Virus record (IMG/VR): IMGVR_UViG_3300017691_000006
Coordinates: 12,751-76,750 of that record
DNA from: a virus
Taxonomy: Duplodnaviria; Caudoviricetes
Reading direction: 5' to 3' (one strand)
DNA length: 64,000 nt
Shown here: in pieces, positions 30,261 through 58,801 of the stretch
Layout: every line of letters starts with the position of its first letter
How positions within the stretch are numbered: the first letter of the stretch is position 1
The notes under the pieces: generated by a model
Told to the model about the DNA's origin: nothing
The model's database searches: none
The model's input: the letters and a program-made list of their open reading frames with translations, nothing else
Position numbers and translations under genes: made by a program

Positions 30261-30287
30261 GGTCAGTTTAGCGTCGTGACCAGGACG
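30261..30287 (-). ncRNA. H-type pseudoknot element, copy 1
   Basis: RNA CGUC-CUGGUCAC-GACG-CUAAAC-UGACC; loop GGUCA pairs with UGACC. Confidence 0.7.
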
Positions 30288-30293
30288 TGTTCG

Positions 30294-30881
30294 TTACGCG
30301 GTGTGGTGCCGCTTGCTCGCGGCCTTCCTCGCGGCCTTGGCCTTGCGGCGGCGGTCCCGGCGGTTGCCGGTGAAGACCTGCTCCGGCTCCTCGCCGAAGG
30401 CGGCGGTGGTCGGCTCGTCCATGTCGGCGAACTCGACCTCGCGGTCGTCCTCGTCGGGCTCCAGCGAGACCATCTGGAGACGGAGCTCCTCCACCAGCTC
30501 GGGGCTGATGTTCATGCCGATCTGCTTGAGCTTGGTGTCGATGATCGCTCGCGCAACCTCGTGGCTGAGCGTCGGGTCCTTGAGCTGGTCAGCAGCGGAC
30601 GCGATGTGGAGGTCTGCGGGGACGAGACCAGCGGCCTCCATCTGCGCGCTGAACGGCTCCAGCTCACCCCTGTCGACCAGGAAGAGCTCAGCGCCCTCCG
30701 GCAGTGCGAGCGCCTCCTCGGAGGTCTCCACCTCGACCAGGCCGTCCTCGTTGTGCGTGCAGAGAGCGTACCACTTGTTCGAGAGACCCTCCTCGACCAG
30801 CTCCACGGTCGCTGCGGGCTTGCCCTTGGCGATCAGGAACAGGTTGGCGACGAGCGCGCTGTCGTAGTTCTTCATGTGCAT
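30294..30881 (-). CDS. acidic hypothetical protein with basic C-terminal tail
   Basis: About 195 aa; ends NRRDRRRKAKAARKAASKRHHTA. Confidence 0.6.
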   Translation of the reverse strand: MHMKNYDSALVANLFLIAKGKPAATVELVEEGLSNKWYALCTHNEDGLVEVETSEEALALPEGAELFLVDRGELEPFSAQMEAAGLVPADLHIASAADQLKDPTLSHEVARAIIDTKLKQIGMNISPELVEELRLQMVSLEPDEDDREVEFADMDEPTTAAFGEEPEQVFTGNRRDRRRKAKAARKAASKRHHTA

Positions 30882-30910
30882 TCTCACTTGAGGTTGTTAG
30901 TGGTGGGTCA

Positions 30911-30938
30911 AGCCAGTTTAGCGTCGTGGCTCAGGACG
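30911..30938 (-). ncRNA. H-type pseudoknot element, copy 2
   Basis: RNA CGUC-CUGAGCCAC-GACG-CUAAAC-UGGCU; AGCCA pairs with UGGCU. Confidence 0.7.
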
Positions 30939-31009
30939 TCACAGCCGTTTGCGTGCGGCATTTTACTCTGGTATCGTTTGGGGTTGTTGAACTTACTTCA
31001 TGATAACCT

Positions 31010-31045
31010 CCTAGGTGTTTCATATAAGATGCTCAGTTCTGCGCG
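31010..31045 (-). promoter_or_regulatory. class B conserved motif, divergent copy
   Basis: Plus strand CCTAGGTGTTTCATATAAGAT-10 nt-GCGCG, same spacing as the three closer copies. Confidence 0.6.
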
Positions 31046-31326
31046 AGCCACTCCTCGACGTGCTGGACCGACACGAGGCCGATCTTGCTGCCCATCAGCA
31101 CCCCGTTCTTGAACAGGTACAGGGTGGGCACGGCCCGGAGCTCCAGCTCCTTGGCCACCAGCGCGTTCTCGGTGACGTCGCAGACGAGCACGTCCTCGCG
31201 GTCGGACAGGCGTTCACCCATCTCGACCGCCAGGTTGGACCAGTCGGTGCGGCAAAGCAGCATCACCCTCCCCGCGCGCTGCTTCACCTTCGCCTCGAAG
31301 TTGGCGTCCGTTACGGCCTCAGGCAC
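31033..31326 (-). CDS. thioredoxin-fold protein lacking CxxC
   Basis: AVTDANFEAKV start, VCDVTEN..VAKELELRAVPTLYLFKNG cis-Pro motif; WCxxC replaced by CRTDWSN. Confidence 0.65.
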   Translation of the reverse strand: MPEAVTDANFEAKVKQRAGRVMLLCRTDWSNLAVEMGERLSDREDVLVCDVTENALVAKELELRAVPTLYLFKNGVLMGSKIGLVSVQHVEEWLAQN

Positions 31327-31645
31327 TCAGCCGCACCTGCACGGGAGCGGACATCTCGCGGATGTCCAGCTCCGCCTCGATGGCGTGCTTGAAGTGTACG
31401 CCGTGCACCGTGATGCGGTAGACCTCGGGACCGACCTCCTTGATGAGGCCGTACTTCAGCAGCTCCTGGATGGAGCGCGCCGACGGGGTGTTAGCCATGA
31501 CGAGCTTCTTCTCGCCGGTCGCCAGCACGTCCTTCTGGAGGTCAGTCACCGTGAAGGGCTTGTTGATGGGAGCCCTGCTCAAGCACAACATCGTGCCTAA
31601 GCTAACCTTGTTGATCAATGCGTGGAAACCGGTAAGCATATTCAT
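31319..31645 (-). CDS. hypothetical protein, possibly winged-helix
   Basis: SIQELLKYGLIKEVGPEVYRIT pattern; probable ATG at 31645. Confidence 0.45.
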   Translation of the reverse strand: MNMLTGFHALINKVSLGTMLCLSRAPINKPFTVTDLQKDVLATGEKKLVMANTPSARSIQELLKYGLIKEVGPEVYRITVHGVHFKHAIEAELDIREMSAPVQVRLSA

Positions 31646-31658
31646 ATCTCCTCTTGGA

Positions 31659-31961
31659 TCAATCGACCTCAATGATGAGGTTCTCGTGGCCATGTTTGTG
31701 GAGGTAGGCCACCCTGTCCTCGTAGCTCATGTTGTCGAGCTCGGCCTGGTTGGACCGTCGAACGAAGGCGTTGACTTGTTTCTCTGCGAAGGCGTTCACC
31801 ATCCGCTGCAGGTCCTGGGGCATGCCGCCCCGGATGATCTGCTCCATCACGTCCTGGCTGATGTCGTCCCGCGCGTGAAGGCTCACGTTCGGTGCGATCA
31901 TGCCGCGGACTCTCTCCTCTACCTCAACTGCCTGTCTGTTCAACATACCACCCCACTCCAC
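31659..31961 (-). CDS. hypothetical protein
   Basis: About 95-100 aa. Confidence 0.5.
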   Translation of the reverse strand: MEWGGMLNRQAVEVEERVRGMIAPNVSLHARDDISQDVMEQIIRGGMPQDLQRMVNAFAEKQVNAFVRRSNQAELDNMSYEDRVAYLHKHGHENLIIEVD

Positions 31962-32026
31962 TCAGTTTGTTGTTGCTGCGGTTGTACTTGCACTATCCCA
32001 CTTGGGCTTTGTCCTTTCATATGGTG

Positions 32027-32287
32027 TTACTGCAGCATATGCAGCTGCGACTCGGCCCGCATGCGCAGGTCGAGAACGGACTCCACCTCCGACGCCTCGC
32101 GGCTCGGGGTCGAGATGTTGAGCACGGGAGGGCCTGCGGGCTTGTGGTCGACCTGCTGGTCGCCCTCGCTCGCCGTGCGTGTCTTGGTGAACTGGTCGAG
32201 CTGCAGCTCAGCTACAACTCCGTTGATGGCGACGACCGCGCCGGGATCGAATTGTTCGAGAAGGTGAATCAGCTGGTGGTTGCGCAT
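32027..32287 (-). CDS. hypothetical protein
   Basis: 86 aa, ATG after CAGG. Confidence 0.45.
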   Translation of the reverse strand: MRNHQLIHLLEQFDPGAVVAINGVVAELQLDQFTKTRTASEGDQQVDHKPAGPPVLNISTPSREASEVESVLDLRMRAESQLHMLQ

Positions 32288-32300
32288 GTTGCCTGCATTT

Positions 32301-32332
32301 AAAAGGGAGTGACACCCGAAGGCATCACTCCC
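32301..32332 (-). terminator. intrinsic terminator
   Basis: GGGAGTGATGCC-TTCG-GGTGTCACTCCC-TTTT. Confidence 0.8.
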
Positions 32333-32342
32333 GTAGTTGTCG

Positions 32343-32630
32343 TCAGAGCGTCTCGAACACCGCCTCGAGCTCGTCCTTGAGCGGGTGGTCCGCTGCGACG
32401 GCTGCGCGCTGGAACACGTCGCGTCGCTCCTCGGAGCCCTCGACCCAGGGCACCAGCACGGACATGATCGAGGCGACGTCGCTCGCCCTATTCTCCGGGT
32501 GGTCCCGGAAGTGACGCGTCATCACGGTCACGGCGTTCTCGCCGGCGTCGGAGACCACGGCCTCGTCCACCTTCGGCGACACCGCCGCGTCGTCGATCAC
32601 GATGTCGTTCGCGTCGTTTTCATCGGCCAT
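32343..32630 (-). CDS. acidic hypothetical protein
   Basis: 95 aa, RBS GAGGA. Confidence 0.6.
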   Translation of the reverse strand: MADENDANDIVIDDAAVSPKVDEAVVSDAGENAVTVMTRHFRDHPENRASDVASIMSVLVPWVEGSEERRDVFQRAAVAADHPLKDELEAVFETL

Positions 32631-32871
32631 TCTTCTTGTCTTCCTCTTCGAGTAGCTTCCTGAGGTCCTCGTAGCCGCCGACGTGGCGACCTCCCATGAA
32701 GACCTGTGGTACGGTGGTGAAGCCGGCGCCTACCAGGAACTCCTTGAACTTGGAGTCCTGGCTGTAGTTGAACAAGCCGACACCCACACCGCGGCTAAGC
32801 AGAAGGTCCTTAGCCCTGTCACACCACTCACAGTTGTCGCGGGTGACAATCACGGCACAGTTGTTATTCAT
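32620..32871 (-). CDS. glutaredoxin (NrdH/Grx-like)
   Basis: CEWC active site, TVPQVF, GGYEDL; probable ATG at 32871. Confidence 0.85.
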   Translation of the reverse strand: MNNNCAVIVTRDNCEWCDRAKDLLLSRGVGVGLFNYSQDSKFKEFLVGAGFTTVPQVFMGGRHVGGYEDLRKLLEEEDKKNGR

Positions 32872-33089
32872 TTTCGAGCAGTTCCTGCAGTGTTCGTCGA
32901 GGCCGTACTCGCGGAGTCCGCATGGTCCACAGGCCATACTTGTTTGCCCTCCTTGATGTCGAAGATGGTCGCGCCCTCCCTCAGCGCCTTGGCGTACGAG
33001 AGGGCGGCGCAGTACAGTTTGAATGCCGTTTGGCCGTAGGTCCAGTCGTCGTCGTGTCCGGAGACGCGGTAACGGTTAACCTTGAACAA
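32868..33089 (-). CDS. hypothetical protein
   Basis: Probable TTG at 33089 after GAGAGG. Confidence 0.4.
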   Translation of the reverse strand: MFKVNRYRVSGHDDDWTYGQTAFKLYCAALSYAKALREGATIFDIKEGKQVWPVDHADSASTASTNTAGTARK

Positions 33090-33582
33090 GCGGCCTCTCC
33101 CTGAACTTCTCCCACAGGGGCCACAGGTCGACGACCTGGACACCCTGCTCGCGAGCGTAGCGTACGGTGTACTCGGAGCCGCCGGTGCCGCTCGATAGCG
33201 ACAGCAGCTTCTGGCTCTCGTCGACCATCTGCCGGTTGCGCTTGAGGTACGCGTCGTCGGTGAAGGTGGGCGACGTCACCGTCACCGTCTCGCACCTAGC
33301 CAGCAGCCGCCTGTAGCGCGTCTGCGCGTCGGCTGGCCAGTGGCGCTCCTGCCCCTCGAACGGCACCCTGGCGTGCACGGGGATACCCAGGACGACGCAA
33401 GCGTCGCACACCGCCTGGTCCCAGCCCTGCGCCATGCCTTGCACGACGTGGAACGCCGTGTCCTGCTCGGCGACCTCGTTGTTGAGGATCAGCCGCGCGA
33501 AGGCGTACAGCTTGTTGCGGCCCTCGATGGAGTAGCCGCCCAGCTTCTCGGGCCTGTGACCCGTCACGGAGAGGCGCATCAT
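33076..33582 (-). CDS. SLOG-superfamily protein (YspA/DUF2493-like)
   Basis: VTGHRPEKL, GMAQGWD, VPFEGQE..W, YLKRNRQMVD.S, SGGSEYTVRYA motifs. Confidence 0.8.
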   Translation of the reverse strand: MMRLSVTGHRPEKLGGYSIEGRNKLYAFARLILNNEVAEQDTAFHVVQGMAQGWDQAVCDACVVLGIPVHARVPFEGQERHWPADAQTRYRRLLARCETVTVTSPTFTDDAYLKRNRQMVDESQKLLSLSSGTGGSEYTVRYAREQGVQVVDLWPLWEKFRERPLVQG

Positions 33583-33782
33583 GTGCGCTTCTGCCTCACG
33601 CCGCCGGGAACGCACCGGTCGATGCGCTCCTTGAGGTCGTCGTAGGTGATGTTCACCATCAGCGACTTGCCGGAGACCATCGTGATCTCGCAGTCGGTGG
33701 CGCCGGGATAGATGAACTCGACGTTGTCGAAGTTCACCATCGTCATCTTGCCGGTGTAGCGGAGGGGTAGCTCAATTACCAT
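33579..33782 (-). CDS. hypothetical protein
   Basis: 67 aa. Confidence 0.5.
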   Translation of the reverse strand: MVIELPLRYTGKMTMVNFDNVEFIYPGATDCEITMVSGKSLMVNITYDDLKERIDRCVPGGVRQKRT

Positions 33783-33966
33783 CGTAGATGCACTCCATGC
33801 TCATGAAGTGGCGGTACAGCATGATCATCTTGCCGCCGTGGAACAGACGGAGCACGCCCCTGTCGTCGCAGCCGTGGTTGTCGACAGTGTGCTCGGTGAC
33901 GCGGTTCTCGTGGGTGACCTTCACCTTGTAGGGCTTGGTCTCGCGGATCATGATATTCAAGCTCAT
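33772..33966 (-). CDS. hypothetical protein
   Basis: 64 aa, ATGA overlap. Confidence 0.5.
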   Translation of the reverse strand: MSLNIMIRETKPYKVKVTHENRVTEHTVDNHGCDDRGVLRLFHGGKMIMLYRHFMSMECIYDGN

Positions 33967-34670
33967 AGGAAGATGTCCTTGGCACTTACCTTGGCAGACA
34001 CAGGTTGCTTCTGAGCGACCGGCTCGGGCTGCCGTACCGGCTCCTTCGGGGTGAAGAAGCTCATGTCCAGGTCGCTGTAGTCGACGGTGGCCGCCACCGC
34101 CTTCTTGACCTCCTTGTACGCGATCACCCAGTCGGGCTGCGCGCGGTTGGTCCAGTTGTTGCCGTTGATCTTCTCGGCCAGGTAGTAGGCCCGGTACGCC
34201 TGCATCGTGTTCTCCCGGTCCATCGGGTCACGCTTGTAGACGTCCGGCACGCATGCTTTCGGCGTCGTGTGGTTGAGGATGACGAACTTGCTCAACCAGT
34301 ACTTCATGGCGGGCACGATCACTCGCGCTCGCTCGAACTTGTCCGGGTTGCCTGGGTAGCGATAGTCGTACTCGTTGACCATCGCTCGGAGGTGGTCCAC
34401 CAGCCAGCTCACGTTCCCGAGGCCCTCGTTCAGCCAGAGGGCGGCGGGGTGGTTGGCGTGGGACAGCCCCGTCCAGGGCACGTCCGGAGCCTTGTCGGGC
34501 ACCAGGTCGGTCTCCACGAACTGGTGCGTCTCGTCGTCGTGCGGGCCGGTGTATCGGCTGGCCCACACGGACAGCAGCTGGCACGATTCGGATATCATTT
34601 TGATGATATGCCGGTCATGCAGCGCGATAGCTGCTTTTGCAGGGTCTTTATCGACGTAGAATATATTCAC
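33963..34670 (-). CDS. pyrimidine-dimer DNA glycosylase-like protein (DenV-related)
   Basis: MNIF.VD.DP..AA..L.D.H..KM..E..QLLS and H.NHP...W signature. Confidence 0.8.
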   Translation of the reverse strand: MNIFYVDKDPAKAAIALHDRHIIKMISESCQLLSVWASRYTGPHDDETHQFVETDLVPDKAPDVPWTGLSHANHPAALWLNEGLGNVSWLVDHLRAMVNEYDYRYPGNPDKFERARVIVPAMKYWLSKFVILNHTTPKACVPDVYKRDPMDRENTMQAYRAYYLAEKINGNNWTNRAQPDWVIAYKEVKKAVAATVDYSDLDMSFFTPKEPVRQPEPVAQKQPVSAKVSAKDIFL

Positions 34671-35173
34671 AGGCCAAGTAGCTCCATCTGGCTGGCTTTG
34701 GCTTTACTGTAAGCTGCCTCAGCCTCCTCGGGCGTGTTGAAGTGCCCGAGATTCTTCTTTTGGAAAGTTGCGCGCCACTTGGCTGTAGAGGGTACGAAGG
34801 ACACACCTAGTATTCCGGTGAGACTGTCCTTGTGAGCAACCACGTTGAGCATGTTGCCAGCTCTCGTGACCAACCGCAGGTTCTCAATGCGGTTGTTGCT
34901 CTTGTTTTGATCTATATGATCTATGTCCATCCCTGCAGGGATAGGTCCGTTGTGCATTATCCAGACCAGCTGGTGCACTCTGAACTTCTTACCCAGCAGG
35001 GTGGTCTGTACGTAGCCTTGCCCGTCGTCGCTGCCTACCCGGCTACCAACCTTAACACGATTACTGGTAGACACGAGCCAGAACAGCTCTCCTTCCTTGT
35101 ACTCAAAGAAGTAGGCTAGGTCCTCAGGGCTGAACTGCACCCTGGGGCGGCACGTGGTTGTTGTGGTATTCAC
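34667..35173 (-). mobile_element. free-standing HNH homing endonuclease with C-terminal AP2-like DNA-binding region
   Basis: HQLVWIMHNG...DIDHIDQNKSNNRIENLRLVT; KWRATF..LGHFNT.EEA..AY; codon usage visibly less GC-biased than neighbours. Confidence 0.88.
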
Positions 35174-35690
35174 TGCTGTGCACCGGGCCGTCCTTCGTGT
35201 GGAAGAACCACGCCTTCTCCTTGCGGAGGGTGGCGAACAGCGAGAGGCAGTCCTTGGACGTGTACACGATCGCGTGCACGGACTCGGCGCTGCGGAGGAC
35301 GACGTCGCCCGCGCTGCGCCACTCGGTCGAGATCAGCTTGTTGGTGCCGGCCTCGTACATCGCCTCGCAGTACTTGCCGCGCACCACCAGCGTGGCGTTG
35401 GACCACGGGTGGCAGTGCGGGTCGTCCGCGTCGCTTCGGGCGTACTCGTGCAGGTAGACGTTCTCCAGCTCGGAGTGCATCCACCCGGAGAAGCCCAGCT
35501 GCTTCGCGGGGTCGTCGTAGATCGGGACGACGGCCTTTCGGGCCAGCATCCAGCGGTTGATGTACGCCGAACCGTTGCGCATGATCGGCTGGTTCGGCGC
35601 GCGGTCCCGCATGACGGCCTCGCAGGCGGAGCGGATCAGTCCCGTCAGCTCGGGCGTCACCGCTTGCGGCAGGTAGCGGAAGTCATTCAT
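35124..35690 (-). CDS. cupin-fold protein
   Basis: YLHEY..SD.DDPHCHPW..ATLVVRGKY.E and VHAIV motifs. Confidence 0.65.
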   Translation of the reverse strand: MNDFRYLPQAVTPELTGLIRSACEAVMRDRAPNQPIMRNGSAYINRWMLARKAVVPIYDDPAKQLGFSGWMHSELENVYLHEYARSDADDPHCHPWSNATLVVRGKYCEAMYEAGTNKLISTEWRSAGDVVLRSAESVHAIVYTSKDCLSLFATLRKEKAWFFHTKDGPVHSSEYHNNHVPPQGAVQP

Positions 35691-36021
35691 TGTCGTTCTT
35701 CTCGCGCTTGATCTTCTTGAACTCGAGGCGACGGTCCCGGTCGTACTCCTCGTTGCTGATCAGGTTCGCGGCCATCTCCCTGACGGTCTCCGGGTCCCGC
35801 TTGAGGGCGGGAGGGAGGCTGTCCGGGTCCGGGTGCTCGATGACCTTGAGCGGGTGCTCGGCCAGGATGGCGTCGCGGGCACGGCGCTGCACCTGGTTGT
35901 CGGTGGACAGGAAGTAGTTGTCGAACTTGTCCTTGCCCGGCTTGTCGTCGTGGAGCTTGCGCGTGTTGGACACGATCTTGTCCGAGATGTCGCGCAGCTC
36001 CTGCATGTGGTCTTCCTGCAT
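35683..36021 (-). CDS. hypothetical protein
   Basis: 112 aa, typical codon bias. Confidence 0.55.
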   Translation of the reverse strand: MQEDHMQELRDISDKIVSNTRKLHDDKPGKDKFDNYFLSTDNQVQRRARDAILAEHPLKVIEHPDPDSLPPALKRDPETVREMAANLISNEEYDRDRRLEFKKIKREKNDNE

Positions 36022-36249: not shown

Positions 36250-36299
36250 GTGGGACTTACCGCCCCCGCGAGGCTGGTAGAGGATCTCCGAGCAGGGGC

Positions 36300-36657: not shown

Positions 36658-36761
36658 AGAGCGCGGTACGGGCGCACCGTGTGGTAGACGCGTAGATCAA
36701 CCTTGCTGGTGTCGTTTAGTGCGCGGCCTGCTAGTGCGACGCACCCTTACGGGGCATGGTG

Positions 36762-36790
36762 GTGCAGTTTATAGTCATGCTCCAGGACTA
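36762..36790 (-). ncRNA. H-type pseudoknot element, copy 3 (variant)
   Basis: RNA UAGUC-CUGGAGCAU-GACUA-UAAAC-UGCAC; stem 1 covaries. Confidence 0.6.
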
Positions 36791-36798: not shown

Positions 36799-37389
36799 TT
36801 AGCCCTGCGCTTCGGCAGCGGCTTCCTTCTCGGCCTTCTGCGCCGCCATCTTCTGGCGGTACGCCTCCAGGCCGGCGGCTGCCTGCGGCGAGACCTCGCG
36901 CTTCGGCTTGCCCGCGTCGAACGACGTCAGGATGGCGTCCTTGTTCGCGTAGACGAGCTCGGCGAGCTTCTCGTTGCCCTCGGCGACCTCGGTCAGCGCT
37001 GCGGTCGCTGCGGCGCTCTGCTCCTCGTCCGTCATGCGCTTGACCGACGGCCAGCGGAACGACGCCTTGAACGCGTCGACGTTGTCCACGACGAACGCGG
37101 CCTGGCGGTCGCCGGCGAGGGTCGTCGCGATGTAGTCGAGCGCCTTGGTGAGCGCGGTGTTCTCGGACTTGGTGACGCGCTTGATCTTGCCGGTCTCGAG
37201 TGCGACCTCGACCTTCTCGCGGTTCTCGACCAACCAGTTGGCGATCTTCTCGTTCGCCTCACCGGCGGGCAGTGCAGCGCGCAACGCCGCGACGATCTGC
37301 GGGCGACGCTGGTAGTCCTGGGCCTCGGCCTTGGTCTCGAAATAGATGCCGTCGACGACGTAAACGGGCTTCAGTTCGTTCGATGCCAT
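36799..37389 (-). CDS. helical hypothetical protein behind two class A motifs
   Basis: 196 aa (MASNELKPV...), very strong codon bias suggesting high expression. Confidence 0.65.
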   Translation of the reverse strand: MASNELKPVYVVDGIYFETKAEAQDYQRRPQIVAALRAALPAGEANEKIANWLVENREKVEVALETGKIKRVTKSENTALTKALDYIATTLAGDRQAAFVVDNVDAFKASFRWPSVKRMTDEEQSAAATAALTEVAEGNEKLAELVYANKDAILTSFDAGKPKREVSPQAAAGLEAYRQKMAAQKAEKEAAAEAQG

Positions 37390-37438
37390 GTGAATCAAAT
37401 CTCTCTCAGATGCGGGCCGCAGGTGCGCGACCCTTTCA

Positions 37439-37458
37439 GGGTTAATTTAACGGGTTGG
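37439..37458 (-). promoter_or_regulatory. class A conserved motif, copy 3
   Basis: GGGTTAATTTAACGGGTTGG. Confidence 0.8.
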
Positions 37459-37485: not shown

Positions 37486-37505
37486 GGGTTAATTTAACGG
37501 GTTGG
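37486..37505 (-). promoter_or_regulatory. class A conserved motif, copy 4
   Basis: GGGTTAATTTAACGGGTTGG, 47 bp from copy 3. Confidence 0.8.
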
Positions 37506-51585: not shown

Positions 51586-51605
51586 GGGTTAATTCAACGG
51601 GTTGG
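51586..51605 (-). promoter_or_regulatory. class A conserved motif, copy 5
   Basis: GGGTTAATTCAACGGGTTGG at the head of the SSB/replication operon. Confidence 0.8.
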
Positions 51606-52278: not shown

Positions 52279-54519
52279 TTAGACGAAACAGTAGTCGGAG
52301 TCCTTCACCAGCGTGATGTCGAGCGTGCCGAACTCGACCTGGCTGATGTCGCCCATGATGTCTTCCATGATGTTGCCGAGCGGGTCGGCGTCGTACAGCT
52401 CCACGAACGTGTCGCGGATCAGCTGGAAGAGCTCGGGCATGTCGGCCAGCAGGCAGCCGAACGAGTCGTGGATGGTAGTGATCGGGAAGTCTGCCTTGGC
52501 CACCGTGATGGTCAGGTGGGCGGCGTCGAGCGAGTGGATGGCGTTCGGCGAGGCGCCGGACACCTGCTTGCCCTTCGACGGCACCTGGTTCTCGATGAAG
52601 CAGATGGCGATCTGGTACGTGTTCGCGTAGTAGCCGGTGGACAGACGCTCGCCGACCGGCGGGCCGTACTGCACCCAGATCTTGCGCGACACGCCCTCGG
52701 TGTAGTACTGGACGACGGGGAAGTCGGTGACCGGCACGGTCCACGACAGGAACTCCCCGGCCTCCTCCGCCTCCCTGCCCGCGTTCTCGAACACGGACAG
52801 CAGCTGCATCGGGCGGCGGAGGCTGACCCGGCAGTCGTCGAACACGACGCGGCCTAGGTAAGAGCCCCACTTGTGCTCCATGAACAGGAGCTTGTCGATG
52901 CCGTGCTTCTTGGAGTCGTCGATCTGCTGCTGGCCCAGGCCGTACGGGGTGCCGCCGTAGGGCAGGGTCATGACGTTGCGCTTGACGATCTTGCGCCGCT
53001 CCTTGGCGTCCGTGACGGACAGCCAGTAGACGGGACTGGACAGGTCGCCGATGCGCTTGTGCATGTCCTTGTAGGCCCGGACCTCGTCGATGAGCATGCT
53101 GCGCTGCACGCTCTTCGGCTCGAGGTTCTGGATGGTCTTCTTGTACTGCACCAGCGTGTCGATGTAGGACACGCAGGCCTTGTAGTCCTCCGGCAAGTAC
53201 GCGGCGACCTCCAGCTGCAGCCGCTCCCACACGTGGTCGGCGACGTACTTGTAGAGGTCACCGGGCAGCTCGCTCGGCACCAGGTTGACGTGCGGCGCCG
53301 TCTCCTCGTCCCTGGTGAGCGCCGAGAGGTGCTGGCTGCCGTTGTTGGAGCCGTCGATGTACACCTCCAGCGAGGACTCGTAGTCGTAGTTCTCGTAGTC
53401 GCCGCCCTGCTGGGTCTGCCAGATACGGAGCTTCATCAGCTCGGTGCAGGCGGCAAGGAACTGCCAGGGCTTGTCGGCCTTCATCCAGCCCTGGTTCACG
53501 CGTGGCTGCTCGGCGTACGAGAGCAGGATGTCCTCGTGCTCCTTACACCACGCGTACCGATCCTTCAGAGGGATCTTGTCGGTCTTTGCCTTGTCTGGTC
53601 GACCAGCATCTCCTGCCCAATTCGAAGCAATGGAGACAAGGAGCCAGAAGAAACCAGGCTCGCCAATCCGCTTGCGATCTGCTCGGAGGAGAAGTCCCCT
53701 TGCCAGATCACTACCTTGCTCGTGGAGGTAGGCGGTGGTGGGGTACTTGCGCCCACGGAAGTCGAAGTAATAGAGATGGTAAAATCGTCGGCCAAGGAAC
53801 CGGCCAGCGATATCTCCAATCGCCTTCGCTTCTCTGAGCTTGGTGGCTCGGGCGTCTTTGCTAGACTGCTCCCAGATATCGCTGAAAGCATCTGTCTTGT
53901 TGCCCAGCGCCCAACGGTACGTTTGATAGATGTCTTGATTGACATTCCAACCAACCTCCTGTGCTTTGTTGAGACAAGCGAACAGCATCGGGTGCGTCTC
54001 GAGCGTGATCTTGTCGAGGACGTCCCTGCTGCCCGTCTTAACCATCGGCATCCCCGTGGCGTGCCTGGAGGTGGTCCAGGGCTCGTACGGGGTCACCGAC
54101 GGCAGCTTCTCGTTGGTCGAGGAGGTCACGGAGGACCACAGACCGACGATGCCGTCGTCGTCCACGAGTCGGACGATGTAGGCGGCGTGGCTCTTGTTGC
54201 CCTGACCGAGTATCACCTCGATCATCTGCAGCTTCTGGAAGGACCACAGCAGGAACGCGCCGGTCTTGGCGGCCAGGCTGGAGTCCCGCTTCTGCTTGAG
54301 CTTGGAGCGCACCGAGTGGCCCAGAGCAGCCACCATCTCCGAGAAGTAGATGGCGGTGCTGCCGAAGCCCTTCTTGACACGCGTGTACATGTACACGACC
54401 GAGATCACGGTGTCAAGGTATTCTTCCACTTGGAACTGCTTGAGGTACTTGAGCGGGTTGCGCGGCGAGACCTCAACCTCGAGCCGCTCCTCAATGCTCT
54501 TCTTCAGCTCAGCGCGCAT
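52279..54519 (-). CDS. T7-like single-subunit DNA-dependent RNA polymerase (746 aa)
   Basis: YYFDFRGRKY, KPWQFLA, IDGSNNGSQH (A), RKIVKRNVMTLPYG (B), PNAIHSLDAAHL and TIHDSF (C). Confidence 0.96.
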   Translation of the reverse strand: MRAELKKSIEERLEVEVSPRNPLKYLKQFQVEEYLDTVISVVYMYTRVKKGFGSTAIYFSEMVAALGHSVRSKLKQKRDSSLAAKTGAFLLWSFQKLQMIEVILGQGNKSHAAYIVRLVDDDGIVGLWSSVTSSTNEKLPSVTPYEPWTTSRHATGMPMVKTGSRDVLDKITLETHPMLFACLNKAQEVGWNVNQDIYQTYRWALGNKTDAFSDIWEQSSKDARATKLREAKAIGDIAGRFLGRRFYHLYYFDFRGRKYPTTAYLHEQGSDLARGLLLRADRKRIGEPGFFWLLVSIASNWAGDAGRPDKAKTDKIPLKDRYAWCKEHEDILLSYAEQPRVNQGWMKADKPWQFLAACTELMKLRIWQTQQGGDYENYDYESSLEVYIDGSNNGSQHLSALTRDEETAPHVNLVPSELPGDLYKYVADHVWERLQLEVAAYLPEDYKACVSYIDTLVQYKKTIQNLEPKSVQRSMLIDEVRAYKDMHKRIGDLSSPVYWLSVTDAKERRKIVKRNVMTLPYGGTPYGLGQQQIDDSKKHGIDKLLFMEHKWGSYLGRVVFDDCRVSLRRPMQLLSVFENAGREAEEAGEFLSWTVPVTDFPVVQYYTEGVSRKIWVQYGPPVGERLSTGYYANTYQIAICFIENQVPSKGKQVSGASPNAIHSLDAAHLTITVAKADFPITTIHDSFGCLLADMPELFQLIRDTFVELYDADPLGNIMEDIMGDISQVEFGTLDITLVKDSDYCFV
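53565..53945 (-). CDS. candidate overprinted 126-aa ORF inside the RNAP gene (+1 frame)
   Basis: ATG 9 nt after AGGAGG; stop-free for 126 codons; coincides with a sharp loss of GC3 bias in the RNAP frame. Confidence 0.55.
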   Translation of the reverse strand: MSIKTSIKRTVGRWATRQMLSAISGSSLAKTPEPPSSEKRRRLEISLAGSLADDFTISITSTSVGASTPPPPTSTSKVVIWQGDFSSEQIASGLASLVSSGSLSPLLRIGQEMLVDQTRQRPTRSL

Positions 54520-54666
54520 TCACTTCCTTTGGAGTAGGGACAGGACGGCTACGAGCGCGACGACGGAGCCGACGACTGCGGCAAGTTTCAGTGCCAGGGC
54601 GAACAGGATGATGAACACGAAGCCCTTGGCCAAGACATTACCGTTAGTCGACGAACTCTTTCTCAC
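54520..54666 (-). CDS. 48-aa membrane micropeptide (MRKSSSTNGNVLAKGFVF...)
   Basis: GTG after GAGGAG; stop abuts the RNAP ATG. Confidence 0.55.
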   Translation of the reverse strand: MRKSSSTNGNVLAKGFVFIILFALALKLAAVVGSVVALVAVLSLLQRK

Positions 54667-54684
54667 GCACGCTCCTCAATTATT

Positions 54685-54768
54685 TCAGTTGTGACACTTT
54701 CCGATGATGATCCCTAGGATCGTAATTAGCGCGCTGATGAGCAAGGGAGTGGCGTAGAGCACTTGCAT
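54685..54768 (-). CDS. 27-aa hydrophobic micropeptide (MQVLYATPLLISAL...)
   Basis: Read manually; single TM. Confidence 0.35.
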   Translation of the reverse strand: MQVLYATPLLISALITILGIIIGKCHN

Positions 54769-54790
54769 TAGGATACGGTGTGCGAGAGGG

Positions 54791-55150
54791 CTAGAGCAGC
54801 CCGTTCGCGTCGAGGAAGCCGACAGTTGCCATCACCAGGGCAAGACCGGGGCTGAGAGCCTGAGCTCCCGACTGCTGCGAGTGCTCGGCGTGCTTGACGA
54901 CGGCTTCTGCGGCCAGAACACCGGGCTCAGGAAACGTCGGCCGTAGCTCCCACAGAACGTCTGGGGGACAGACCGAGTACAGAAGGCGAAAAGCCTCGTC
55001 CAAGGAGCCGACGTAATCGGGGAGTAGGAAGGCCTTGAGGCCGGGGCGCCATGCATGGATTCTCTCGTTGATGTGTGTCGCGTCGTAGTGGCCCGTGACG
55101 CCTGCGGGCAGCTCGCTGAGGAAGGCGAGCAGCTCCTTCGTGTCAAGCAT
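54791..55150 (-). CDS. hypothetical protein
   Basis: 119 aa; DYVGSLDEAFRL...PD..W pattern. Confidence 0.55.
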   Translation of the reverse strand: MLDTKELLAFLSELPAGVTGHYDATHINERIHAWRPGLKAFLLPDYVGSLDEAFRLLYSVCPPDVLWELRPTFPEPGVLAAEAVVKHAEHSQQSGAQALSPGLALVMATVGFLDANGLL

Positions 55151-55556
55151 CCGTGAGGCTGTTCACGTTGAAGTCGTGGCCACGGTTGACAACCTCGTAG
55201 TCTGCCTCGGCCAGCAGGTCGACCTCGCCAGGGCCGGGGTTCGGCTTGGTGGTCGGCTTGCCGAACTGCTTGAGGCGGTTCTGGGCGCGCTGGCACTGGT
55301 TGCAGCTGACCGGGTCGTCGGTGCCGGCGAAGTCCTCGTTGGTCTGGAAGAAGTTGTGCTGCTTGCCGCACAGGTACGCCTCGCTGTCGTCCTCGTCGAC
55401 CGCGTGGGTGATCAGGAACTGGTTGAGGCCGACGCTCTCGACCGGCTGCTTGAGCTTCTTCGGCTTGTAGTCCGACTTGTAGCCCTCCTCGCCGCAGCCG
55501 GAGGCGGTCATCATCTGCGCCTGAACGGTGCCGGTAGCCTTGAAACGTGTCGACAT
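55143..55556 (-). CDS. hypothetical protein with Cys cluster
   Basis: 137 aa; YLCG...VSCNQC possible zinc site; RBS AGAGG. Confidence 0.6.
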   Translation of the reverse strand: MSTRFKATGTVQAQMMTASGCGEEGYKSDYKPKKLKQPVESVGLNQFLITHAVDEDDSEAYLCGKQHNFFQTNEDFAGTDDPVSCNQCQRAQNRLKQFGKPTTKPNPGPGEVDLLAEADYEVVNRGHDFNVNSLTDA

Positions 55557-55593
55557 GGTTGTACCTCTTAGCCGTAAAAAAGTTAGGTGTGGA

Positions 55594-55620
55594 GGCCAGT
55601 TTAACGTCGTAGCCAGGACG
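55594..55620 (-). ncRNA. H-type pseudoknot element, copy 4
   Basis: RNA CGUC-CUGGCUAC-GACG-UUAAAC-UGGCC. Confidence 0.7.
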
Positions 55621-55689
55621 TGCTCGAAGCCGAAAAATATTTTAGCGGAGAACGCCCACGAGGGGCGGCAGTAAAAATATTAGGTAGTA

Positions 55690-55716
55690 GGGCAGTTTTA
55701 CGACTTGCCCAGGTCG
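55690..55716 (-). ncRNA. H-type pseudoknot element, copy 5
   Basis: RNA CGAC-CUGGGCAA-GUCG-UAAAAC-UGCCC; both stems covary; contains the stop codon of the upstream gene. Confidence 0.7.
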
Positions 55717-55892
55717 CCCTTGAATCTCACGAATAGCAACCCTGCCAGCAGGACCGCCAGCCACTTGAAGAAGGAGAACGTACCTGCCGCGATCTTCACC
55801 GTCCCGGGAGGGAAGGCGAACAGCAGGTACACGAGCAGGGCGGCTCCGGACAGCTGTAGGCCGCCGGAGACGCTCTTGATCGCTGCCCTCAC
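55698..55892 (-). CDS. 64-aa two-TM membrane peptide
   Basis: GTG overlaps upstream stop; two hydrophobic helices. Confidence 0.55.
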   Translation of the reverse strand: MRAAIKSVSGGLQLSGAALLVYLLFAFPPGTVKIAAGTFSFFKWLAVLLAGLLFVRFKGDLGKS

Positions 55893-56092
55893 AGGTCCTC
55901 GAACGAGAAGACGACCTTGCCGGCCTTCTTGTTGGGGAGGCTCGCGATGCCCTTGCGGAACACGCCGAGCAGCGAGAGACCCTTCAGCCACACGAAGAGG
56001 CTGACCGCCGCCTTCGCCGAGACGAGCAGCATGCAGATCACCACGATGTAGGCAACGAGGTGTACGGTGTCAAAGAAACCGAGTCCGAACAT
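55889..56092 (-). CDS. 67-aa membrane peptide
   Basis: RBS GGAG; hydrophobic; directly behind a class B motif. Confidence 0.6.
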   Translation of the reverse strand: MFGLGFFDTVHLVAYIVVICMLLVSAKAAVSLFVWLKGLSLLGVFRKGIASLPNKKAGKVVFSFEDL

Positions 56093-56124
56093 TTCATTTC
56101 TCCGCTAAGAGTATTTCCGAGATA

Positions 56125-56162
56125 CCTAGGTGGATATCATATAAGATACCCGCTTTTGCGCG
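56125..56162 (-). promoter_or_regulatory. class B conserved motif
   Basis: Plus strand CCTAGGTGGATATCATATAAGATACCCGCTTTTGCGCG. Confidence 0.75.
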
Positions 56163-56165
56163 GTA

Positions 56166-56294
56166 TCAGTTGTTGTCGTTGGCCCGGTTCACCAGGTTCA
56201 CCGCACCGTTGATGATGTAACCGATCATGCGAATGATCGCCATGAAGCAGTAGATGGTGATGGTGAAGAAACCAGCGACGAGTGCTTCGAGCAT
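56166..56294 (-). CDS. 42-aa membrane micropeptide (MLEALVAGFFTITIYC...)
   Basis: ATG after AGGAG; behind a class B motif. Confidence 0.55.
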   Translation of the reverse strand: MLEALVAGFFTITIYCFMAIIRMIGYIINGAVNLVNRANDNN

Positions 56295-56313
56295 TTTATT
56301 TCTCCTGTTGATA

Positions 56314-56351
56314 CCTAGGGTGATATCATATAAGATACCCCTATTTGCGCG
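56314..56351 (-). promoter_or_regulatory. class B conserved motif
   Basis: Plus strand CCTAGGGTGATATCATATAAGATACCCCTATTTGCGCG. Confidence 0.75.
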
Positions 56352-56353
56352 TT

Positions 56354-56542
56354 TTAGAGGTGCTCCAGGATGTCCTTCACAGCGAAGGTTCTCACCGCGC
56401 GCTTGTCCACGTCGTAGGCGCGGAGCAGCCACTGCTTCTGGGGGTGGTACTTGTTTGAGCTCCACACCAGCGGGCGGTGGGCGTTGGGGACGACGTGCCG
56501 CACGGACACGTCTCCCTTGTAGTTCCGGTAGCGGAACCTCAT
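56354..56542 (-). CDS. stand-alone WYL-domain protein (62 aa)
   Basis: FRYRNYKG..S.RHVVP...WLLRAYDVDKRAVRTFAVKDI matches the WYL pattern; ATG at 56542 overlaps upstream stop. Confidence 0.7.
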   Translation of the reverse strand: MRFRYRNYKGDVSVRHVVPNAHRPLVWSSNKYHPQKQWLLRAYDVDKRAVRTFAVKDILEHL

Positions 56543-56691
56543 CGCTTGCGACGTTTCGCCTTCTTCTTCGCCCCGAACAGCAGCGCCTTCAGCCCGCTGG
56601 TCTTGGCCTTCTTCTTGCGGAGCTTCGCCTTCTTGGCCATCTCCGCGTGGGTGCCCTTCGGCACGTACGGTCTGTCCCATTTGTTTCCCAT
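56539..56691 (-). CDS. 50-aa Lys-rich basic peptide
   Basis: MGNKWDRPYVPKGTHAEMAKKAKLRKKKAKTSGLKALLFGAKKKAKRRKR; typical codon bias. Confidence 0.55.
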   Translation of the reverse strand: MGNKWDRPYVPKGTHAEMAKKAKLRKKKAKTSGLKALLFGAKKKAKRRKR

Positions 56692-56694
56692 CTC

Positions 56695-57039
56695 TCAATT
56701 ATCGGGCGTCGGGGTGTCCGTGCCCTCTGCTGCTGCGGCGTCGCTGAGCTGCTTGCTCTCGCCGCCCTGGTGCTCGCCGACGTTCAGGTCGGTCTGCTCC
56801 GTGTACTCGTCGTCTTCGGGTCGCATTTGCCATCCTTTCTCTGTCTGCTCGAACTTGCCGGACCTGACCAGCGCTCCGGCGATGCGCTTGCTCGTGAACT
56901 TGTTCTTGGGTAGCTTCTTACGCAGGGCGCTCAGCGATATAGCCGTCTGCCCAGCTGCAACCGCCACTGCCGTTGAGCAGATCAGCCTGTCGGTTTGCTT
57001 CTGCGACGAGCGCTGATGCGCGAGAACCGTGTAGGCCAT
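56695..57039 (-). CDS. hypothetical protein
   Basis: 114 aa, ATG after GGAG. Confidence 0.5.
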   Translation of the reverse strand: MAYTVLAHQRSSQKQTDRLICSTAVAVAAGQTAISLSALRKKLPKNKFTSKRIAGALVRSGKFEQTEKGWQMRPEDDEYTEQTDLNVGEHQGGESKQLSDAAAAEGTDTPTPDN

Positions 57040-57358
57040 CGTTCCACTCCCTCACCCAAACGTGCATGAACGCGAAGGCAGCCAGCGAGTGGCTGAATAT
57101 CCGCGTCTCAACGCAGTGCTCGGCGCCGCTCGCGTCCGCGAAGACGAAGCAGTGACCGTGCGCCCTTGACCACCCTCTTACGCTTCGAGCCACGAAGGGC
57201 CTTGGCAGGTTCCAGTACCGCAGCGTCTCCTCCTGCTGCCGGAGCTGCTGCCAGGCCTGCAGGGTCTCCGGCGTCAGCGTGTGCAGCAGGCCGAGGCCCT
57301 CGAGCCTTGGCAACGCCTCCAGGGCCAAAGAACGTAGGGCTGAGGTGGAGCTCATCAT
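56918..57358 (-). CDS. hypothetical protein
   Basis: Central part shows strong GC3 bias; overlaps both neighbours. Confidence 0.45.
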   Translation of the reverse strand: MMSSTSALRSLALEALPRLEGLGLLHTLTPETLQAWQQLRQQEETLRYWNLPRPFVARSVRGWSRAHGHCFVFADASGAEHCVETRIFSHSLAAFAFMHVWVREWNDGLHGSRASALVAEANRQADLLNGSGGCSWADGYIAERPA

Positions 57359-57746
57359 AGTAGTGGTTTCCGATCGGCTTGATGAACACGGGAGAGTCCT
57401 CGACCAGCCGGTGCGGCTGACCCATCTTCTCCGACGTGATGTTGAACTTCATGGCGGCTGCGGCCATGATGTCGATGCCCATGGCGGTGCAGAACATCTG
57501 CAGCGAGATGTAGCAGTCGCCCACCTCCTCCGCGATCTTCTGCATGACGTCTTCCTGCGTGAGGTCACGGTTGTCGTTGTAGCCGACGCGCAGCCGGTTC
57601 ATCTTCTTGTAGGCGTCGCTGAGCTCCCCGGACTCGCCGGCGAACTCCTGCAGCCACTCGCCCGGAGTCCAGTGCTCCAGAGGGCCGACGGCGTTGCCGC
57701 GTATGATGGTGGCCTGCTTGATGGTTGCGGGCGTGGTGTGGGTCAT
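57108..57746 (-). CDS. MazG-like nucleotide pyrophosphohydrolase
   Basis: FAGESGELSDAYKK...IAEEVGDCYISL...KFN EXXE motifs; last ~80 codons overlap the next gene and look non-coding. Confidence 0.75.
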   Translation of the reverse strand: MTHTTPATIKQATIIRGNAVGPLEHWTPGEWLQEFAGESGELSDAYKKMNRLRVGYNDNRDLTQEDVMQKIAEEVGDCYISLQMFCTAMGIDIMAAAAMKFNITSEKMGQPHRLVEDSPVFIKPIGNHYYDELHLSPTFFGPGGVAKARGPRPAAHADAGDPAGLAAAPAAGGDAAVLEPAKALRGSKRKRVVKGARSLLRLRGRERRRALR

Positions 57747-58339
57747 CGCATTAGCTCCTTTATCTGTTCGAGTCGCTTGAGTACGTAGTCTTCGTCGGGC
57801 TTGTCGTAGAGGCCGTCGAGCGAGGGCACCTCCTTGCCGTTGCCGAAGCGGAAGGCGAAGGTGTGTTCGTCGACCGGCACCTTGTCCTCGTGCTGGACCA
57901 GCAGCAGGACCGTCTGGGGGTCGTCGATCGAGATCGTGTGGATGTCGGTGTGGGCGCTGAAGTAGGACTTGTCACGCTCGTACTTGAACGCGCCCTTCTC
58001 CCGCATGGCCACCTCCCTGGCCCACTCGAAGCCGTCTCCGCCGTTGAGCGGGGTCATGTACCGGAACATCTGCGCGCGGTGCGTGCGCGGAGCCTCGGTG
58101 ACCAGCGGCGCGAGGTCGTAGGTGCGGTTCACCACGCTGCCGGCAAGGACGTGGGTGTAGAAGTCGTAGCGGTGGTCGTGCGGGACGACCGCCTCGGGCA
58201 GCTGCGATACCTCGCCCTCGAAGAAGTAGGCCTTGACGGTCAGCTGGGGCGACCGCGCCAGGCAGAGGTAGTCGAAGCCCTTGCAGTGGAAGTTGATGAA
58301 AGAGTTCTTCACGATGTCGTGCAGGTCGTCGTAGCGCAT
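57743..58339 (-). CDS. cupin-fold protein
   Basis: VVPHDHRYDFYTHVLAG and DIHTI metal-ligand motifs. Confidence 0.65.
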   Translation of the reverse strand: MRYDDLHDIVKNSFINFHCKGFDYLCLARSPQLTVKAYFFEGEVSQLPEAVVPHDHRYDFYTHVLAGSVVNRTYDLAPLVTEAPRTHRAQMFRYMTPLNGGDGFEWAREVAMREKGAFKYERDKSYFSAHTDIHTISIDDPQTVLLLVQHEDKVPVDEHTFAFRFGNGKEVPSLDGLYDKPDEDYVLKRLEQIKELMR

Positions 58340-58346
58340 TGTTACC

Positions 58347-58739
58347 TCAGAGCTGGATGCTGGCTGCCGACACCTTCGGGCCCTCGGGCTTCGGCGTCGG
58401 TACGTGGTCGGCGCTGACCTCCACCAGCTCGGGCTGGGGCAGCTGCGCCTCGTAGATCTTGTTGCGGCACGCCCAGATGGCGTCGTACAGGTGGACGCCG
58501 GTAGAGGACTGCGTGCCCTTCGGGTGCAGCATGGTCACCCTGAACATGCCGCGCGAGCTGTCCGGGTTCGGGGGCAGCACCTCGACCTTGGTCTCGAACG
58601 CCTCGGCGTGCATGCAGAGCTTCATCAGCGCCACCTCCAGCGCCTCCAGCTCCTCGCGTGTTGTGGGTATCGGCGCCTCGTTGAACAGCTGCCGCTCGCT
58701 CTTGAGCTGCGCCCTGATGCGCTCGTCTCTCTTGTTCAT
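58347..58739 (-). CDS. hypothetical protein
   Basis: 130 aa. Confidence 0.55.
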   Translation of the reverse strand: MNKRDERIRAQLKSERQLFNEAPIPTTREELEALEVALMKLCMHAEAFETKVEVLPPNPDSSRGMFRVTMLHPKGTQSSTGVHLYDAIWACRNKIYEAQLPQPELVEVSADHVPTPKPEGPKVSAASIQL

Positions 58740-58774
58740 GTCTTTGCTCTCGCCGAAAAGTAGTTAGGTGTGGA

Positions 58775-58801
58775 GGCCAGTTTAACGTCGTGGCCAGGAC
58801 G
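58775..58801 (-). ncRNA. H-type pseudoknot element, copy 6
   Basis: RNA CGUC-CUGGCCAC-GACG-UUAAAC-UGGCC. Confidence 0.7.

Follow-up and report, generated by a model that had tools for sequence, protein, structure and literature searches.

What might a small RNA fold, repeated six times along a phage genome at the borders between genes, be doing there? The question is raised by a stretch of 64,000 nucleotides (the window; bases 12751-76750 of the 76,750-bp IMG/VR virus record IMGVR_UViG_3300017691_000006, G+C 63%), in which every long open reading frame (ORF) lies on the minus strand and in which a compact H-type pseudoknot of 27 nt recurs on that strand. As set out below, this pseudoknot is a large, uncatalogued RNA family present in hundreds of unrelated phages and is not peculiar to the window phage, and its action is that of an RNA, not of a site in duplex DNA. 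As to what it does as RNA, we put at roughly 45% the probability that it serves as a directional roadblock or insulator in polycistronic mRNA against machinery moving in the 5'-to-3' direction.

The fold and its copies in the window

The consensus fold can be written as S1(NGNC)-CU-S2(GNNCA)-Y-S1'(GNCN)-NWAAAC-S2'(UGNNC), i.e., a first stem (S1) of 4 bp with an invariant C-G closing pair, a first loop (L1) consisting of the 2 nt CU, a second stem (S2) of 5-6 bp with an invariant CA/UG end, a single and variable junction nucleotide (L2; C, U or A) and an A-rich third loop (L3), NWAAAC. Conservation is strongest in the loops and the junction (CU, Y, WAAAC), and the helices covary. L3 probably lies along the S1 minor groove in the manner of the luteovirus and coremin pseudoknots, and the conserved loop bases are those expected to form intramolecular triples.

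The preliminary description of this DNA had proposed just such a compact pseudoknot with covarying stems, and the proposal is borne out by copies that were found without any requirement for pairing. A sequence-only covariance model (R1), built from 11 equal-length copies and containing no base pairs, so that its matches were not selected for pairing, was searched against 57 loci fetched via the phage RNA polymerase and then against the complete records of five carriers, yielding 23 copies in six related phages with G+C contents from ~35% to 63%. Across these copies 96.5% of cells are in standard pairs as against 76.3% on shuffling (0/500 shuffles), and pairing falls to 24-45% in a control in which the 3' partner is slid by 1-3 columns. 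Changes on both sides are seen in six of the nine pairs. The C-G closing pair of S1 is present in 23/23 of these copies and in 128/128 distinct copies, with S1 pairs 1-3 covarying; the outermost S1 pair is sometimes open (5/21), which is true of no other pair, and the seed alignment is 100% paired.

All six copies in the window are, as had been claimed, on the minus (gene) strand, and none is on the plus strand; a degenerate core pattern finds 4 matches there against 0.12 expected, and 4 were reached in 0/100 shuffles. Copy 1 (58775..58801, minus; CGUC CU GGCCA C GACG UUAAAC UGGCC) begins its S1 5 nt past the UAG of ORF 58807-59151, with the AUG of ORF 58347-58739 lying 35 nt downstream, and copy 6 (30261..30287, minus; CGUC CU GGUCA C GACG CUAAAC UGACC) begins 6 nt past the UAA of ORF 30294-30887, with the AUG of ORF 29924-30223 lying 37 nt downstream. 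Copy 4 (36761..36789, minus; AGUC CU GGAGCA U GACU AUAAAC UGCACC, a 6-position S2 with one A.A mismatch) begins 9 nt past the stop of a ~200-aa gene (36799-37398), whose orthologues in four related phages also have a pseudoknot behind them. Copy 2 (55690..55716, minus; CGAC CU GGGCA A GUCG UAAAAC UGCCC) holds the UAA stop of ORF 55698-55991 within its L3 and is followed by a U-run and a GCCC-CUCG-UGGGC hairpin. It forms a tandem pair with copy 3 (55594..55620, minus; CGUC CU GGCUA C GACG UUAAAC UGGCC, with a U.G wobble in S2), which comes 96 nt later, 37 nt ahead of the AUG of ORF 55143-55556 and upstream of the operon with a 746-aa RNA polymerase. Copy 5 (30910..30938, minus; CGUC CU GAGCCA C GACG CUAAAC UGGCUU, a 6-bp S2 ending in G.U) lies 94 nt past the upstream stop and ~35 nt ahead of the AUG at 30875. 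Copies 4 and 5 are 29 nt long because the sixth S2 position is present.

Three copies thus stand 5, 6 and 9 nt past a stop codon and one has a stop inside L3, in agreement with the earlier statement that most are at or just after stops. The earlier reading as a cis element of gene junctions is supported. The stem forms previously listed are likewise recovered, with S1 as CGUC/GACG, CGAC/GUCG or AGUC/GACU and S2 as GGCCA/UGGCC, GGCUA/UGGCC, GGUCA/UGACC, (G)AGCCA/UGGCU(U) or GGGCA/UGCCC; what that list omitted is the S2 of the copy at 36762, GGAGCA/UGCACC with its A.A mismatch. The genes flanking the pseudoknots in the window received no function from Pfam or PHROG.

A tail of the form ...CCUAA(C)-U4-6-(A)CGGC follows four of the six copies, and in three of them the ribosome-binding site (RBS) and AUG come next, which is the succession of ACCUAA, U-run, CGGC and RBS noted at first for several copies. 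After copy 1 it is a clade-specific 3' extension (58752..58774, minus; UCCACACCUAACUAC-UUUU-CGGC) for which no structure is predicted and after which the RBS comes; boxes of the same kind stand after copies 2, 3 and 6 (55667-55689, 55571-55593 and 30238-30260, minus). T-runs of at least 5 are rare, with seven on the sense strand of the whole 76.7-kb genome, four of which adjoin pseudoknots. A hairpin sequestering the Shine-Dalgarno sequence after the window copies is unsupported, since the predicted energies are only -1.6 to -4 kcal/mol. The interval between the tandem copies (55625-55673, minus) contains, besides the GCCC-CUCG-UGGGC hairpin, an additional CUAA-AUAUUUUU-CGGC box with a T-run at 55637; as this box has no pseudoknot, the downstream box is a separable module.

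Distribution among phages and action as RNA

An exact pattern, CCTGNNCATGNNNNWAAACTG, scanned across IMG/VR has at least 132 matches at no fewer than 120 loci. Among the matches listed, 122/132 have at least 3/4 of S1 and 5/5 of S2 paired, when the chance expectation for six free pairs all pairing is well under 1%. The same pattern in bacterial genome contigs is paired in just 26/119 matches, in a collection far larger than IMG/VR in which chance matches dominate. Among cultured phages, a 30-mer BLAST search places the motif in 168 records, nearly always in intergenic positions. Of these carriers 85 are Staphylococcus phages (including 80, 52A, 92, 96, phiETA, phiNM4 and SA13), and the others include phages of Vibrio, Lactobacillus, Streptococcus, Synechococcus, Nostoc, Microcystis, Paracoccus, Lentibacter and Arthrobacter, Mycobacterium phage Labelle, Moorella and Bacillus phages and one Geobacillus phage. 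Up to 6 copies occur per phage genome. A BLAST search of E. coli genomes with a typical copy gave no match, and full-text literature searches returned no description of a phage pseudoknot of this kind.

Within the window phage's own family the pseudoknot is confined to a subclade. The nearest cultured relatives, the roseophages DSS3_VP1 and PM1 (Naomviridae), have 35% polymerase identity and the same gene order, and DSS3_VP1 has no copy of the pseudoknot; the paper on DSS3_VP1 contains no transcription data. A relative with 70% polymerase identity bears two diverged versions (L033:8897-8975). The first, CGUC CUCGGCAC GACG UUAAAA GGCC..., has its S2 down to ~3 bp, and in the second, AGUC CC GUCC A GACU AUAAAC GGAC, other bases stand in for the conserved CA/UG end of S2; the family thus extends beyond what the scanning pattern describes. 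A general structural descriptor with no sequence constraints proved uninformative, because reversed controls gave as many matches as the real sequence.

Three features mark the element as RNA. In the variable pairs of the 128 distinct copies there are 40 G.U against 11 A.C combinations (22 against 4 if the outer pair is left out), an excess that identifies the folded strand as the sense strand. Flanking long ORFs are much commoner on the strand that carries the pseudoknot than on the opposite one, which serves as an antisense control. The spacer between the upstream stop codon and S1 has a sharp floor together with a mode at 5 nt: 22 copies are at exactly 5 nt, followed by a tail, and only three fall below it (one at 0 nt and two at 4 nt). 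A DNA site would show no such rule with respect to stops. The wobble bias, the ribosome-sized stop spacing and the orientation with flanking genes together establish that the pseudoknot acts as RNA and not as a duplex DNA site, as the preliminary description had argued from the covariation of the stems.

The floor itself has a natural ribosomal meaning. Work by Takyar and colleagues in 2005 is reported to have placed the helicase site of the ribosome at +11, and with a spacer of 5 nt the first pair falls at about +12, counted from the P site. Lying just outside the helicase site, the pseudoknot would thus be as near the stop as it can be while remaining folded during termination. Frameshifting pseudoknots have the same spacer geometry. 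About half of the copies are anchored 4-12 nt past a stop codon. At the other end, among the matches listed, the pseudoknot ends 13-40 nt before a start codon in 54/122 and almost never nearer. The element is so placed in intercistronic RNA that the fold would escape both the terminating and the initiating ribosome. The 10-12 nt that follow it are G-poor and predicted to be unstructured, and there is no further conserved flank.

The downstream feature need not be a protein-coding gene. In several contigs a tRNA gene lies 5-13 nt downstream of the pseudoknot (tRNA-Asp five times, and also tRNA-Asn, tRNA-Ala and tRNA-Arg), so that there is no tie to the translation of the next gene. Five unrelated IMG/VR contigs (L097, L105, L106, L142 and L150) share one arrangement, in which a phrog_1221 gene and its stop are followed after 6-19 nt by the pseudoknot and after a further 5-13 nt by tRNA-Asp(GUC). 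In contigs related to this set another pseudoknot stands ~150 nt upstream of the phrog_1221 gene, with a TTGACA-N17-TAAA(A/C)T promoter coming after it; in some contigs, too, the element has a clear promoter of this form behind it. In temperate phages of S. aureus the pseudoknot occupies the border between a MuF-like head gene and the scaffold and capsid genes; e.g., in phage SA13 it lies 9 nt past the stop of the MuF-like head-morphogenesis gene and is followed by CUUUUUAUAC, with the GP20 scaffold and capsid genes starting ~60 nt further on.

Relation to known RNA folds

The suggestion that the element may be STAXI or some other Rfam pseudoknot had to be given up. Rfam 15 gave no match at the pseudoknot copies, either at gathering score over the whole window, where the sole such match is a tRNA, or at E <= 10 for the copies, and the element is accordingly not STAXI, preQ1-I, GP20-a/b or a catalogued ribozyme. 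STAXI resembles it as a small repeated pseudoknot on mobile DNA but differs in consensus and gene context.

The closest known relative in print is coremin, an exoribonuclease-resistant RNA (xrRNA), above all in its Watson-Crick variant (xrRNA_WCC), and the phage element may be viewed as a new phage-borne variant of the coremin-type fold. Coremin is numbered N1-G2-U3-C4 / C5-G6-A7-A8 / G9-A10-C11-G12 / U13-U14-A15-A16-A17-C18-U19-A20-C21, followed by a second hairpin, hp2 (PMC6546385). Its first hairpin, hp1, has 3-5 bp with a sequence-specific C-G loop-closing pair (U-A being tolerated), and its other pairs may covary (PMC6546385); the loop follows the rule YGAD, or YGNNAD in longer loops, with G fixed at loop position 2 (PMC10520033). 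Both Xrn1 and scanning ribosomes are stalled by coremin (PMC10520033), which also withstands elongating ribosomes (PMC6546385, PMC10520033, PMC10321173) and promotes -1 frameshifting (PMC10321173). A Watson-Crick coremin, first selected and then found in nature, has a canonical S2 between loop and spacer, is similar to pseudoknots of the beet western yellows virus (BWYV) type and has frameshift activity without hp2 (PMC10321173). [quoted passage not shown]

Several features are shared. Both have a 4-bp hp1, the BNYVV stem CGUC/GACG being that of S1 in four of the six window copies, and both have a sequence-specific C-G closing pair with covariation in the other stem pairs. The spacers agree over (U)UAAACU, AAACU being essential in coremin and invariant in the phage element. 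The proposed H-type topology with adenines in the minor groove of S1 is common to the two, as is a location in 3' untranslated or intergenic RNA a few nt past an ORF, and the canonical loop-to-spacer S2 is shared with xrRNA_WCC. The hp1 loop of the phage element, CUGNNCAY, is 8 nt long with its G at position 3 rather than 2, and so departs from both YGAD and YGNNAD. In the coremin spacer, UUAAACUAC, A16-A20 (AACUA) are essential, whereas in the phage element NWAAACU is invariant and the next base is G rather than A and belongs to the beginning of S2'. Its S2 comprises 5-6 Watson-Crick pairs, the first of them just past the C of AAAC, in contrast to the 3 pairs of xrRNA_WCC with positions 18-20. 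No conserved hairpin follows the phage element in the place of hp2, which in coremin has at least 4 bp right after the spacer and is needed for Xrn1 resistance, and the element resides in DNA phages, whose bacterial hosts have no Xrn1. As the loop, the base after AAACU, the length of S2 and hp2 all differ, the element is not classed as coremin. Of the functions earlier offered for it, a block to 5'-3' exoribonucleases is the one that has the nearest precedent in print, in the coremin xrRNA.

Other parallels are more distant. The luteovirus frameshift pseudoknots of BWYV and potato leafroll virus (PLRV) are also compact and H-type; their L1 has 2 nt and begins with C, one nucleotide forms the junction and an A-rich loop passes over S1, and they lie 5-7 nt downstream of the A-site codon; the phage element, unlike them, has no slippery site or extended frame, comes after stops or before tRNAs and is dispersed in multiple copies. 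The preQ1-I riboswitch (RF00522) is a ~30-nt pseudoknot with an A-rich 3' tail in the P1 groove and a 3' end that pairs with the P1 loop. It is set apart by its 4-6-nt L2 with a ligand-pairing C, where the phage element has one variable base, and the phage element gives no covariance-model match at E <= 10, has no expression platform and stands between arbitrary genes. The PeSL (promoter-early stem-loop) cassettes of T4-like phages and the REP elements of enterobacteria are, in a like manner, short repeated structured modules between cistrons that border small genes and affect how stable single mRNA segments are or how genes are shuffled. They are, in contrast, plain hairpins (with a sigma-70 promoter in PeSL) and lineage-specific, whereas the loop bases of the phage pseudoknot are conserved across many phyla.

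Possible functions, and the neighbouring repeats

The fold, its RNA nature, its distribution and its rules of placement are established; the roadblock function and its direction are inferred. On this reading each repeat would be transcribed within a long polycistronic phage mRNA and fold as a self-contained H-type pseudoknot of 27-29 nt, remaining folded immediately beyond the ribosome that terminates on the upstream gene and shortly ahead of the next RBS or tRNA. It would there block agents that move 5' to 3' on naked RNA, namely exonucleases of the RNase J type, RNase E that scans from a 5' end and ribosomes that go on scanning after termination. The downstream segment, be it the next cistron, a tRNA precursor or a scaffold/capsid message, would thereby gain a stability and translation of its own, independent of what lies upstream. 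A bolder version of the roadblock, which we hold to be possible but somewhat doubtful, is that the element is the first exoribonuclease- or scanning-resistant RNA of the bacterial world, i.e., a 27-nt Watson-Crick coremin fold without hp2 by which phages of nearly all bacterial phyla divide polycistronic mRNAs into pieces with lifetimes of their own, halting RNase J, scanning RNase E and scanning ribosomes, and which either has common descent with the coremin of plant, fungal and insect RNA viruses or has strikingly converged on it. If this were true, the covarying S2 would reveal the long-sought pseudoknot of coremin.

Several observations weigh against the roadblock. For about half of the copies there is no stop within 12 nt and no start within 40 nt. 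RNase J is not known from the hosts of many carrier phages (Vibrio, Pectobacterium, Ralstonia), and no one 5'-3' exonuclease can be the universal target. Given the departure from the coremin loop rule and the missing hp2, nuclease resistance is not to be assumed from the likeness to coremin. Moreover, the same orthologous ~200-aa gene (36799-37398 in the window) is followed by the pseudoknot in five related phages in which the downstream genes are unrelated, and terminator-like hairpins or a sigma-70-type promoter stand downstream of several copies; the synteny of the upstream gene and the downstream terminators fit a role at the 3' end of a message at least as well.

That role is the main rival and the mirror image of the roadblock: the pseudoknot would be a 3'-end element of the upstream gene that blocks the 3'-5' exonucleases PNPase and RNase II/R once the RNA has been cleaved or terminated downstream, perhaps aids termination together with a U-tract, and stabilises abundant upstream messages. 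We consider it unlikely on balance, though the observations in its favour are several. Besides the points just given, it is consistent with the half of the copies that lie shortly after stops, and the recurrent upstream neighbours in other contigs (Hsp20, ribonucleotide reductase (RNR), Gp2.5-like single-stranded DNA-binding protein and phrog_1221) are of the abundant-protein types. Where a tRNA adjoins, maturation of the tRNA 5' end would put the pseudoknot close to a 3' end. UUUU is enriched 4-5 times in the first 12 nt after the pseudoknot, but a U-run occurs in just ~20% of copies, and the U-runs of the window stand at a distance of 12-15 nt, which is too great for an intrinsic terminator. 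Members of the Hsp20 group have the pseudoknot anywhere from 5 to 72 nt past the upstream stop, whereas the distance to the start is much steadier, at ~18-26 nt in most. A few copies lie 7 nt after a TATAAT and so are likely at a 5' end. A -10 hexamer just upstream that would put the pseudoknot at the 5' end of a transcript is seen in only a handful of cases with no clear peak. The known relatives of the fold, the xrRNAs, also resist from the 5' side.

Should the roadblock reading be right, the element would be a portable and universal 27-nt phage module that sets the stability of mRNA segments regardless of sequence context, and the first xrRNA-like element directed against the bacterial decay machinery, providing a test bed for how RNase J and 5'-end-dependent scanning by RNase E can be stopped. 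It would also offer a natural model, supported by covariation, of the unsolved coremin fold, a compact insulator for synthetic operons and an annotation key to gene borders in many uncultured phage genomes. The cultured carriers, such as the S. aureus phages 80, phiETA and SA13 and Mycobacterium phage Labelle, make the function testable.

It is improbable that the element is instead a site for a trans-acting factor, i.e., a small-ligand aptamer of the preQ1-I kind or an operator for an RNA-binding protein or endonuclease acting on the junction. Conserved loops and junction within covarying helices are the usual pattern of aptamers and protein sites, and the position directly before tRNA-Asp(GUC) in five contigs and tRNA-Asn(GUU) in one concerns two queuosine tRNAs. 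The absence of any match to preQ1-I or another Rfam riboswitch even at the permissive threshold tells against an aptamer, as do an L2 of one variable base, which leaves no obvious pocket, and the want of a conserved expression platform. Further, no protein common to the carriers infecting Firmicutes, Actinobacteria, Cyanobacteria and Proteobacteria was found, and the loop bases are conserved as would be expected if they were engaged in triples within the fold itself.

Slightly less likely still is a processing site, whether a new and very small self-cleaving ribozyme or a guide for host RNase P or RNase E cutting at gene borders. The ecology is that of the hammerhead, twister and pistol ribozymes, in being intergenic, multi-copy, phage-borne and adjacent to tRNA genes, and a pseudoknot between the P1 loop and downstream sequence with a GUUAAA linker seems reminiscent of the 5' half of pistol ribozymes. 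At 27 nt and with nothing conserved in the flanks, the element is nonetheless below the size of any known self-cleaving ribozyme; it has no conserved unpaired dinucleotide downstream, and no Rfam ribozyme matches it.

A promoter is a still weaker prospect and quite improbable, whether as a sigma-70-type promoter with WAAACT as its -10 or as a folded single-stranded DNA promoter for a virion MuF-RNA polymerase in the manner of N4. What invites it is the co-orientation with genes, the distances of 13-40 nt to starts and 5-13 nt to tRNAs, a BPROM 'promoter' feature that overlaps the pseudoknot in the S. aureus phages B236, phiJB and B166, and the fact that TAAACT is the -10 of clear TTGACA-N17 promoters in some carriers. 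A duplex promoter, however, does not covary, the base that would open the -10 is A and T equally often (64:64) with no -35, and the 5-nt floor past stops is a signature of the ribosome and not of DNA.

The folded variant draws on the two T7-like polymerases of the window phage and on the N4-like polymerases, which recognise hairpin promoters (PMC4496689, PMC9163698). In such a promoter the hairpin is on the template strand, its stem has at least 4-7 bp and its loop 3-4 nt, and it lies ~13-15 nt before the start (PMC4496689, PMC9163698), as used by the N4 virion RNA polymerase (vRNAP) and LUZ7 RNAPII, whereas the loops here are 8 and 11 nt and the wobbles favour the non-template strand. Extruding two helices of 4-5 bp with such loops from duplex DNA would also be very costly. 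An N4-like reading of the window phage itself was rejected, its 3,250-aa ORF being tape-measure-like and no vRNAP. As a general function, a promoter for a phage polymerase is excluded, since among the matches listed a T7-like RNA polymerase gene is near 1/120 loci; most carriers are without such a polymerase, and the window phage has two other classes of promoter-like repeat, one of them family-wide.

[quoted passage not shown]

The family-wide repeat is a sense-strand 20-mer, CCAACCCGTTAAATTAACCC(T), with six copies in the window (61966-61985, 51586-51605, 37486-37505, 37439-37458, 16699-16718 and 4052-4071, all minus), with a short CCCU...AGGG hairpin often coming after it. Its core, CCCGTTAAATTAACCC, is kept upstream of genes in almost all of the ~57 relatives, down to 43% polymerase identity, and it is likely the promoter for one of the two phage RNA polymerases. 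The pseudoknots sit within units headed by this 20-mer, and two 20-mers in tandem head the ~200-aa gene that precedes copy 4. A third repeat, ...GGGTATCTTATATGATATCCACCTAGG / cgcgcaaaaNNgggTATCTTATATGAtatccacctagg, has four copies (starts at 60943, 56337, 56148 and 31031, minus). The cgcgcaaaaNNgggTATCTTATATGAtatccacctagg repeat is an AT-rich, partly palindromic box before small genes with strong RBSs and may be a second class of promoter or operator; the same box, as GGTATCTTATATGA, comes after pseudoknots in two relatives (L022 and L032).

The window phage encodes a family-A DNA polymerase, a primase-helicase, an RNR, a ligase and the 3,250-aa tape-measure-like protein. Its free-standing T7-like RNA polymerase is the 746-aa product of 52279-54519 (minus). 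A 1,564-aa ORF (4074-8768, minus) joins a minor head domain of the MuF/SPP1-gp7 type (aa 6-355) to a T7-like RNA polymerase domain (phrog_414, aa 862-1094), and this fusion, the second polymerase of the phage, is a candidate for a polymerase delivered with the capsid. The tRNA gene of the window (82-152, minus; 61.7 bits in Rfam) separates the structural genes in the window from the tape-measure-like gene, which falls just beyond it. At two of the 20-mers (61900-61985 and 16630-16718, minus) ~70 nt of similar sequence follow, gccgccYcccggccgtaRggcccctct...gggtaggtatag..., and then a very AT-rich tract, which near 16771 contains one of the rare T-runs of the genome; this arrangement may constitute an origin or a structured leader.

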